Positions 3,001-6,000 of a DNA stretch of 64,000 nt are shown here, one piece after another. The position numbers are program-made. Position 1 is the first letter of the stretch. Every line of letters starts with the position of its first letter. Location: assembly GCF_057098645.1 (NCBI RefSeq), contig NZ_CM169472.1. One strand, 5' to 3'.

Positions 3001-6000
3001 AATGGCAAGACCCAGGAACAACAGGTGGTCGCAGCGTGTGACAAACTGGCGGTCAATTTCGGTGCTGAAATCCTCAAAATCGTACCCGGTCGCGTGTCAA
3101 CAGAAGTTGATGCACGCCTCTCTTTTGATAAAGAAAAGAGTATTGAGAAGGCGCGCCATCTGGTGGACTTGTATCAGCAACAAGGCGTTGAGAAATCACG
3201 CATTCTGATCAAGCTGGCTTCGACCTGGGAAGGAATTCGCGCGGCAGAAGAGCTGGAAAAAGAAGGTATTAACTGCAACCTGACGCTGCTGTTTTCTTTT
3301 GCACAGGCACGGGCCTGTGCGGAAGCAGGCGTTTTTCTGATTTCGCCGTTTGTCGGGCGTATTTATGACTGGTATCAGGCACGCAAGCCGATGGACCCGT
3401 ATGTGGTGGAAGAAGATCCGGGCGTTAAATCGGTGCGCAATATCTACGACTACTATAAGCAACACCACTATGAAACCATTGTGATGGGCGCGAGCTTCCG
3501 TCGCACCGAACAAATCCTCGCCTTAACCGGCTGCGATCGACTGACTATCGCACCGAATTTGCTGAAGGAGCTGCAGGAAAAAGTTTCGCCAGTGGTACGT
3601 AAATTAATCCCACCTTCTCAGACGTTCCCACGCCCAGCTCCCATGAGCGAAGCGGAGTTCCGTTGGGAGCACAATCAGGATGCGATGGCGGTAGAAAAAC
3701 TGTCTGAAGGCATTCGTCTGTTCGCCGTTGATCAACGCAAACTGGAAGATCTTCTTGCCGCCAAACTATAAACCAGCCACGGAGTGTTATATGTCCCGAA
3801 AAGACCTTGCCAATGCGATTCGCGCACTCAGTATGGATGCGGTACAAAAAGCCAATTCTGGTCATCCCGGCGCGCCGATGGGCATGGCTGATATTGCCGA
3901 AGTGCTGTGGAACGATTTTCTTAAACATAACCCTACCGACCCAACCTGGTATGATCGCGACCGCTTTATTCTTTCCAACGGTCACGCGTCGATGCTGCTC
4001 TACAGTTTGCTGCATCTGACCGGTTACGACCTGCCGCTGGAAGAGCTGAAGAACTTTCGTCAACTGCATTCGAAAACCCCTGGCCACCCGGAAATCGGCT
4101 ATACGCCCGGAGTTGAAACCACCACCGGTCCTCTTGGACAAGGTTTAGCGAACGCCGTCGGGCTGGCGATAGCGGAACGTACGCTGGCTGCACAGTTTAA
4201 CCAGCCAGACCATGAGATCGTCGATCACTTCACCTATGTGTTTATGGGCGACGGCTGCCTGATGGAAGGTATTTCCCACGAAGTCTGTTCGCTGGCGGGC
4301 ACGCTGGGACTGGGCAAGCTGATTGGTTTTTACGATCACAACGGTATTTCGATTGATGGAGAAACCGAAGGCTGGTTTACCGACGATACGGCAAAACGTT
4401 TTGAAGCCTATCACTGGCATGTGATCCATGAAATCGACGGTCACGATCCGCAGGCGGTGAAGGAAGCGATCCTTGAAGCGCAAAGCGTGAAAGATAAGCC
4501 GTCGCTGATTATCTGTCGTACGGTGATTGGCTTTGGATCGCCGAATAAAGCAGGTAAGGAAGAGGCGCACGGCGCACCGCTGGGGGAAGAAGAAGTGGCG
4601 CTGGCACGGCAAAAACTGGGCTGGCACCATCCGCCATTTGAGATCCCTAAAGATATTTATCACGCCTGGGATGCCCGCGAAAAAGGCGAAAAAGCGCAGC
4701 AGAGCTGGAATGAGAAGTTTGCCGCCTATAAAAAGGCTCATCCGCAACTGGCAGAAGAGTTTATCCGTCGGATGAGCGGTGGTTTACCGAAGGACTGGGA
4801 GAAAACGACTCAGAAATATATCAATGAGTTACAGGCAAATCCGGCGAAAATCGCTACCCGTAAGGCTTCGCAAAATACGCTTAACGCTTACGGGCCGATA
4901 CTACCGGAGCTGCTCGGCGGTTCGGCGGATCTGGCTCCCAGCAACCTGACCATCTGGAAAGGTTCTGTTTCGTTGAAGGAAGATCCGGCGGGCAACTACA
5001 TTCACTACGGGGTGCGTGAATTCGGCATGACCGCTATCGCCAACGGCATTGCGCACCACGGCGGCTTTGTGCCGTATACCGCGACGTTCCTGATGTTTGT
5101 TGAATACGCCCGTAACGCCGCGCGGATGGCGGCACTGATGAAAGCACGGCAGATTATGGTTTATACCCACGACTCAATTGGCCTGGGCGAAGATGGTCCG
5201 ACGCACCAGGCTGTTGAGCAACTGGCCAGCCTGCGCTTAACGCCAAATTTCAGCACCTGGCGACCGTGCGATCAGGTGGAAGCGGCGGTGGGCTGGAAGC
5301 TGGCGGTTGAGCGCCACAACGGACCGACGGCACTGATTCTCTCCAGGCAGAATCTGGCCCAGGTGGAACGTACGCCGGATCAGGTTAAAGAGATTGCTCG
5401 TGGCGGTTATGTGCTGAAAGACAGCGGCGGTAAGCCAGATATTATTTTGATTGCCACCGGTTCAGAGATGGAAATCACCCTGCAAGCGGCGGAGAAATTA
5501 GCGGGAGAAGGTCGCAATGTTCGCGTAGTTTCCCTGCCCTCGACCGATATTTTCGACGCCCAGGATGAGGAATATAGGGAGTCGGTGTTGCCTTCTAACG
5601 TTGCGGCTCGCGTGGCGGTGGAAGCAGGTATTGCCGATTACTGGTACAAGTATGTTGGTCTGAAAGGGGCAATTGTCGGGATGACGGGTTACGGGGAATC
5701 TGCTCCGGCGGATAAGCTGTTCCCGTTCTTTGGCTTTACCGCCGAGAATATTGTGGCAAAAGCGCATAAGGTGCTGGGAGTGAAAGGTGCCTGATGGTGA
5801 TCGCCGGATGCTGATTGCCGGATGCTGATTGCCGGATGCGACGCTGACGCGTCTTATCCGGCCTACAGCGTCTTATCCGGTCTACATGTCCCCGCTATTT
5901 TGTTTAACGGGTGATCCACAACGTGGGCCAGGCATCTGGCCCATGCCAGTTATCGCAGGTCGGTTCTGCGGCGTAACGCACCAGGCGAAAACGCTGACCG

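Follow-up and report, generated by a model that had tools for sequence, protein, structure and literature searches.

REP and BIME elements in a 64-kb Escherichia coli window and tandem amplification of both arms of the tktB-ypfG REP

The intergenic DNA between tktB and ypfG in the 64-kb stretch of Escherichia coli DNA analysed here (the window) carries two exact copies of a 14-bp string, gccggatgctgatt (5803-5816 and 5817-5830, + strand), that directly abut a complete REP at 5831-5866. This arrangement raises the question of whether such a duplication records a recent and unusual event or the ordinary behaviour of a known repeat. The first-pass annotation of this DNA drew attention to the tandem string, which is present as it described, and suggested slippage or a REP-associated rearrangement as its source. 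REP and BIME elements, and their polymorphism from strain to strain, have been known since the 1980s and 1990s, and the E. coli palindromic units and BIMEs were reportedly described by Stern in 1984 and by Bachellier, Gilson and Hofnung. As set out below, the finding is real, ordinary and already known, and the variation in 14-bp copies is a routine polymorphism that adds no new feature.

REP units in the window and their gene context

Gene annotation was taken from the O145:H28 strain RM12761, with 105 added to coordinates beyond 34751, and from K-12 MG1655. Over the 64 kb, the window differs from RM12761 by 19 substitutions and by one 105-bp segment of hyfH that is absent in RM12761. A 501-base query around the tktB-ypfG site, which has a match in 5,425 of 5,426 complete E. 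coli genomes, is 100% identical to RM12761. REP and BIME are used as in Ton-Hoang 2012 (PMC3333891). Units were typed by alignment to the three E. coli REP reference sequences of Durrant et al. (PMC11208160), taken as types y, z1 and z2, with the consensus of 356 EcoCyc REPs quoted in the RepRanger paper (PMC12306157) as a second reference; the RefSeq record of K-12 MG1655 has no annotated REP features.

A scan for the two arms, GCCKGATGC and CTTATCMGGCCTAC, on one strand and ~25 nt apart, identified complete REP units at six places and, with one decayed unit (61261-61296, - strand), there are seven REP units in the 64 kb. The 3′-arm motif CTTATCMGRCCTAC has nine matches with at most two mismatches, compared with 0.69 expected from dinucleotide shuffles, none of which reached nine. 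All seven units align to the y or z2 references, with identities of 82-97%, and REP units are therefore present at all four locations reported by the first-pass annotation (5802..5886, 17148..17229, 21843..21897 and 43636..43730), where their match to REP consensus families had been put forward as the point to check. By annotation the four clusters are all intergenic. Three are flanked by convergent genes (tktB and ypfG, ypfN and ypfH, arsC(yfgD) and hda) and the fourth, at 21844-21889, by bamC and purC, which are co-directional and both point leftward, in keeping with the mostly convergent or terminal context previously noted.

The complete REP between tktB and ypfG, GCCGGATGCGACGCTGACGCGTCTTATCCGGCCTAC (5831-5866, + strand), is z2-like, identical to the z2 reference at 33 of 36 positions, and is in the iREP orientation, with its GTAG on the - strand. 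The BIME between ypfN and ypfH (17148-17231; fold z of -5.5) pairs a y REP on the - strand (17148-17181), identical to the y reference at 34 of 35 positions, with a z2 REP on the + strand (17195-17231), identical to the z2 reference at 31 of 35, and a linker of 13 nt separates the two. In its z2 unit CTGG replaces CTAC, and this is the only unit without a CTAC/GTAG foot; these feet are found at 5863-5866, 5882-5885, 17148-17151, 21886-21889, 43670-43673, 43696-43699 and 61261-61264. The bamC/purC site has a single y REP (21856-21889, + strand; 31/35 to the y reference) preceded by an extra 5′-arm-like copy, GCCGGATGT (21844-21852, + strand), and the site as a whole (21844-21889) is identical in K-12. 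The second BIME, between arsC(yfgD) and hda (43637-43729), has a z2-like REP on the + strand (43637-43673; 33/38 to the z2 reference) and a y REP on the - strand (43696-43729; 29/35 to the y reference), separated by a linker of 22 nt and with the CTAC/GTAG feet directed inward. The single-strand folds of the four clusters have z values of -3.6 to -5.5 relative to shuffled controls, and the stems of the predicted folds have one unpaired position per side. All four are REP/BIME elements of the ordinary E. coli kind, located in 3′ untranslated or inter-operon DNA of the neighbouring genes.

The fifth site, at 61261-61296 on the - strand, has a degenerate z2-like remnant that matches the z2 reference at 32 of 37 positions and forms no stable hairpin; the stop codon of xseA, TAG, is part of its GTAG. 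It was considered as a functional REP and rejected, as its fold is no better than those of shuffled sequences (z +0.45) and it has no Rfam match.

Both arms of the tktB-ypfG REP are amplified

Tandem Repeats Finder (TRF) identified two arrays at the tktB-ypfG site and no other tandem repeat with a score of 50 or more in the 64-kb window. The first (5788-5839, + strand; 3.7 copies, 89% matches) has the 14-bp unit TGCCGGATGCTGAT, which consists of the REP 5′ arm, GCCGGATGC, followed by the spacer TGATT. The register of this array extends leftward into tktB, where a diverged first copy, TGCCTGATGGTGAT (5788-5801), contains the tktB stop codon, TGA (5792-5794). The second (5849-5886, + strand; 2.0 copies, 94%) is a 19-bp array of the REP 3′ arm, GCGTCTTATCCGGCCTACA followed by GCGTCTTATCCGGTCTACA, of which the second copy (5868-5886) constitutes an extra half-REP. 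Downstream of the tktB TGA, the distance is 8 nt to the first 5′ arm and 36 nt to the complete REP. The cluster is one complete z2-like REP with each of its arms amplified in tandem. The duplicated 3′ arm GCGTCTTATCCGGCCTACA, the register that runs into the tktB stop codon and the fifth REP site at 61261-61296 had been missed in the first reading of the sequence.

Two other ways of arriving at two 5′ and two 3′ arms, insertion of one REP into another and hairpin-templated extension of the palindrome, were considered and rejected. Both are contradicted by the outer 3′ arm, which copies the inner 3′ arm and does not complement the outer 5′ arm, and by the spacers, TGATT and ACA, which are not complementary.

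In the predicted folds the complete REP forms a hairpin, which aligns with the second hairpin of the Rfam family naRNA4, and nested hairpins arise by pairing of the additional 5′ arms with the additional 3′ arm, with predicted energies of -42.7, -46.7 and -53.3 kcal/mol for alleles with two, three and four 5′ arms, respectively. REPs are documented to stabilise upstream mRNA, to attenuate transcription and to bind gyrase, Pol I and IHF (PMC3333891, PMC12306157, PMC10100675), and by analogy the tktB-ypfG cluster is probably a 3′-end hairpin that shields the transcripts of the convergent genes tktB and ypfG from attack by exonucleases. A scan of 5600-6100 for promoters and terminators found neither pattern and no intrinsic terminator. 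Translation of tktB may also be damped by the cluster, because the first arm, unlike the complete REP, lies so close (8 nt) to the stop codon, provided that the predicted outer hairpin forms and stalls ribosomes; a REP within 15 nt after a stop codon can lower translation, according to Liang 2015 as cited in PMC12306157.

Copy number of the arms among E. coli genomes

In K-12 the tktB-ypfG spacer is 94 bp, compared with 109 bp in the window; K-12 lacks one 14-bp unit, and the two sequences differ further by a 1-bp indel and two substitutions. Each arm is already present in two copies in K-12, and only one of the two exact copies of gccggatgctgatt is found in that strain and in 60% of genomes. 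The window allele therefore has one extra unit on an old array and is no new duplication, which corrects the first-pass reading. The suggestion of slippage or a REP-associated rearrangement is otherwise consistent with the presence of two, three or four units in different genomes.

Allele-specific queries of 5,426 complete E. coli genomes, with E-value limits that pass only full-length matches, identified the K-12-like allele with two 5′ arms in 3,259 genomes, the three-arm allele of the window in 116 (89-nt allele query, E ≤ 1e-30) and an allele with four 5′ arms in 33. In 831 genomes (15%) an unrelated element takes the place of the REP, and the REP alleles of the remainder, approximately one-fifth, are diverged, an example being that of ST131, which has a single 3′ arm. 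A five-arm query had no match, missing even the partial matches expected from the four-arm genomes, probably through masking of low complexity, and arrays with more than four arms may still occur. The number of 3′ arms is also variable, with one, two or three present depending on the strain, and strain 88-3493 has a separate 10-bp duplication.

The comparison across strains that had been recommended for the 5802..5830 duplication thus establishes that the copy number varies, with the three-copy state present on several flanking haplotypes. This state occurs in O145:H28, O121:H19 and O103 strains and in isolates of poultry, frog and human origin, and is associated with at least four immediate flanks, namely three tails (CCCCGCTA, CCCGCCA and CCCCGCAA) and one form that has a single 3′ arm. 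The internal substitutions of three-arm alleles fall in different units, with GGACGC, for example, in unit 1 or in unit 2, and the four-arm state is found with either TGA or TAA as the tktB stop codon. This distribution of one state over several haplotypes suggests that units have been gained and lost recurrently, although recombination between strains might produce it as well.

An ordinary inherited indel, with a single origin of the three-arm allele and its spread by homologous recombination of the tktB-ypfG segment, would account for the sharing of the allele by whole clonal groups (numerous O121:H19 genomes and, in O145:H28, RM12761 as well as RM13516), and core genes of E. coli do recombine often. 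Exchange of this type would, however, have had to place the allele within tens of bases of at least four different flanks, among them tails resembling those of K-12 and H10 and the form with one 3′ arm, and would leave the internal SNPs in different units, and a four-arm state with either stop codon, to be explained. We consider a single origin improbable. Since whole clonal groups have one state, the rate of copy change under recurrent gain and loss is not high, and the state is stable over clonal time. BIME loci are described as a major source of intergenic polymorphism by Bachellier 1997, as cited in PMC1187871, and BIME polymorphism is also supported by Ton-Hoang 2012 (PMC3333891). In practical terms, the 14-bp array provides a low-copy marker (two, three or four units) by which some lineages, O121:H19 and part of O145:H28 among them, can be told apart from most E. 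coli.

A BoxC element at the same site

In the 831 genomes without the REP array, which include Nissle 1917, the array is replaced by ~80 bp of unrelated sequence, with a core of ~56 bp that is a dispersed repeat; at the sensitivity of megablast, the median number of its locations in a genome is six. Read on the minus strand, the replacement is CCCTCGCCC-CTCTG-GGGAGAGGG-TTA-GGGTGAGGG, and this matches the type A consensus, CCCTCGCCC-N-GGGAGAGGG-TTA-GGGTGAGGG, of the BoxC/PIT/TMECO intrastrand-triplex repeat (Holder 2015, PMC4666352). Sequence common to the BoxC and REP alleles is limited to the first 5′ arm (GCCGGATGCTG) and to the 8 intergenic bases that immediately precede the ypfG stop codon. 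Raised variability has been documented around BoxC/PIT/TMECO loci (PMC4666352), and the tktB-ypfG spacer is a small hotspot at which a REP array alternates with BoxC, making it a possible test locus for repeat-driven instability. The window itself has the REP allele and no BoxC/TMECO element.

Origin of the copy-number variation

Taken together, the reading that we regard as very probable is that the clusters are ordinary REP/BIMEs, that the tktB-ypfG element is REP179a-c of K-12 with both arms amplified, and that slippage is the most likely cause of the change in copy number. Slippage of strands during replication, between 14-bp units that are almost identical, would add or remove units and so give rise to the pattern observed among strains. 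Any of the 5′ arms could pair with either 3′ arm, and the alternative nested hairpins so formed might stall the polymerase or favour misalignment. Microhomology is absent from the borders of the 19-bp duplication (GAC|GCG...ACA|TGT), the first origin of which is therefore not obviously accounted for by simple slippage.

The half-REP arrays might instead be footprints of the REP-associated transposase TnpA-REP (RAYT), with joining of sister copies at C|TGAT adding or removing exactly one 14-nt unit. TnpA-REP cuts single-stranded BIME DNA at C|T, in TGCC|TGAT (iREP site I) and GGCC|TACA (site II), and in vitro its strand exchange assembles multiple REPs (PMC3333891). All junctions between the 14-bp units read ATGC|TGAT, with the essential C|T and the same bases at +1 to +4, and CCC|TACA is a possible phase for the 10-bp duplication of strain 88-3493. 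A perfect tandem array can, however, be divided in any phase, so the C|T coincidence weighs little, and the bases at -4 to -1 are ATGC at the unit junctions but TGCC at the mapped site. Only the 19-bp duplication has a junction that can be assigned without ambiguity, and this reads CTACA|GCGTC, with A|G in place of C|T at the join. TnpA-REP also requires a complete REP together with an iREP or a linker, whereas tktB-ypfG has a single REP, and the literature cited here contains no record of RAYT activity of this kind in vivo. Joining of sister copies by TnpA-REP is, on this evidence, an unlikely source of the arrays, and it is very doubtful that the half-REP arrays with C|TGAT junctions are an in vivo TnpA-REP footprint in which arms have been added and removed. 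Were this nevertheless correct, the locus would be a natural and scorable reporter of a RAYT activity that is so far documented only in vitro. Slippage is retained as the preferred explanation.

IS621 and ISEc20

The first-pass annotation also remarked that REPs are targets of IS621 and contrasted this with the IS110-family element in the window, which is inserted in a C-tract. The first statement is correct, as IS621 targets REPs at ATCAGGCCTAC, and ATCGGGCCTAC is the exact match to its target-binding loop (PMC11208160). The contrast is a non sequitur, as the element present is ISEc20 (38833-40283), which splits focB inside GCCCC|CCCCCC; at the insertion point K-12 has GCCCCTCCCCCC. The target of each IS110-family element is specified by its own guide RNA (PMC11208160, PMC11187229), and the location of ISEc20 in a C-tract consequently needs no explanation. 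Neither ATCAGGCCTAC nor ATCGGGCCTAC occurs as an exact IS621 target in the 64-kb window, and the position-4 variant ATCCGGCCTAC is present only at 5856, 17148 and 43663. At Rfam gathering thresholds ISEc20 has no match to any catalogued RNA family, and thus none to a bridge or guide RNA, and a literature search on ISEc20 found no description of its target.

Comparison with known systems

The units have the features of the E. coli y and z2 REPs, namely the shared sequence, an imperfect palindrome that forms a hairpin with a stem mismatch, the GTAG/CTAC foot, an intergenic location and the presence of multiple copies. The units that begin at 5831 and 43637 differ in that they combine a centre of z2 type (GCGACGC...GCGTC) with the CCGG foot that is usual in y. 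A BIME is defined as two inverted REPs with a linker (PMC3333891), and this describes the sites at 17148-17231 and 43637-43729, each of which pairs a y with a z2 unit in opposite orientations. The definition does not extend to 5788-5886 and 21844-21889, which have one complete REP plus half-units and so are not canonical BIMEs.

In a study of transcripts that contain REPs (PMC10100675), talA-tktB is listed with REP179a-c, the EcoCyc name of the element downstream of these genes in K-12, and the tktB-ypfG element is therefore already catalogued. The K-12 element has the same location and sequence as that in the window except for one 14-bp unit (two 5′ arms, as opposed to three in the window), the 1-bp indel and the two substitutions.

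The Rfam model of naRNA4, a nucleoid-associated, HU-binding RNA (RF02564), was built from a BIME with the order y, linker, z2. The ypfN/ypfH BIME matches the full 77-position model (17151-17228; 85.7 bits, relative to a gathering score of 59.5), and naRNA4 is the only family found by an Rfam scan of the whole window at gathering thresholds. The other clusters match one of the two hairpins of the model, with scores below 59.5 (39.2 bits for tktB/ypfG, 31.2 for arsC(yfgD)/hda and 30.9 for bamC/purC).

Bacterial minisatellites (VNTRs), with units of 10-100 bp that change in number by slippage, resemble the tktB-ypfG array in having units arranged head to tail, here of 14 bp and in two, three or four copies among strains. 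The very low copy number at tktB-ypfG is unlike that of the usual VNTR. As the 14-bp unit is half of a palindromic repeat, this array can, together with the duplicated 3′ arm, form alternative nested hairpins.

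Repeat alleles of the tktB-ypfG spacer and other REP loci

In 831 of the 5,426 complete E. coli genomes, the spacer between tktB and ypfG holds a BoxC/TMECO triplex-motif repeat in place of the REP array, at the site equivalent to 5795-5903 of the window. In O157:H7 TR01, the BoxC/TMECO copy at this location is partly deleted. The spacer in strain 88-3493 (L017) has three 5′-arms and one 3′-arm, and there is also a separate 10-bp tandem duplication at the REP foot, with two copies of CTACATGTCC.

The REP between bamC and purC also has an extra 5′-arm-like copy, GCCGGATGT, at 21844-21852, 12 nt upstream of that REP's own arm, and half-REP duplication is therefore not confined to the tktB site. 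K-12 is identical to the window in this extra copy. A fifth REP, on the minus strand at 61261-61296, is degenerate and z2-like, with a 32/37 match to the z2 reference and loss of the fold. The GTAG foot of this degenerate REP contains the xseA stop codon, TAG.

Length differences in hyf genes and the ISEc20 insertion

Within hyfG, the window has 48 bp that are absent from K-12 (33813-33870), with the two copies of a 10-bp direct repeat, GCCCGTGATT, at the borders of this segment (33813-33822 and 33861-33870). The K-12 hyfG looks like the product of an in-frame, slippage-type deletion. A 105-bp segment of hyfH (~34752-34851) is present in the window and in K-12 and is missing in RM12761, the public genome nearest to the window; the window strain is therefore related to RM12761 yet distinct from it. 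The RM12761 annotation lists yfgI (~55995-56521 in the window) as frameshifted.

ISEc20, an IS110 family element at 38833-40283, splits focB inside a C-tract. Neither ISEc20 junction in the window shows the T that K-12 focB has in GCCCCTCCCCCC. A search against Rfam gave no RNA family within ISEc20.

The ypfN-ypfH BIME and naRNA4

The naRNA4 family was described from a REP locus other than ypfN-ypfH. The ypfN-ypfH BIME, at 17151-17228, has an Rfam naRNA4 score of 85.7 bits (gathering score 59.5), and the naRNA4 model appears to recognise y-linker-z2 BIMEs generally.
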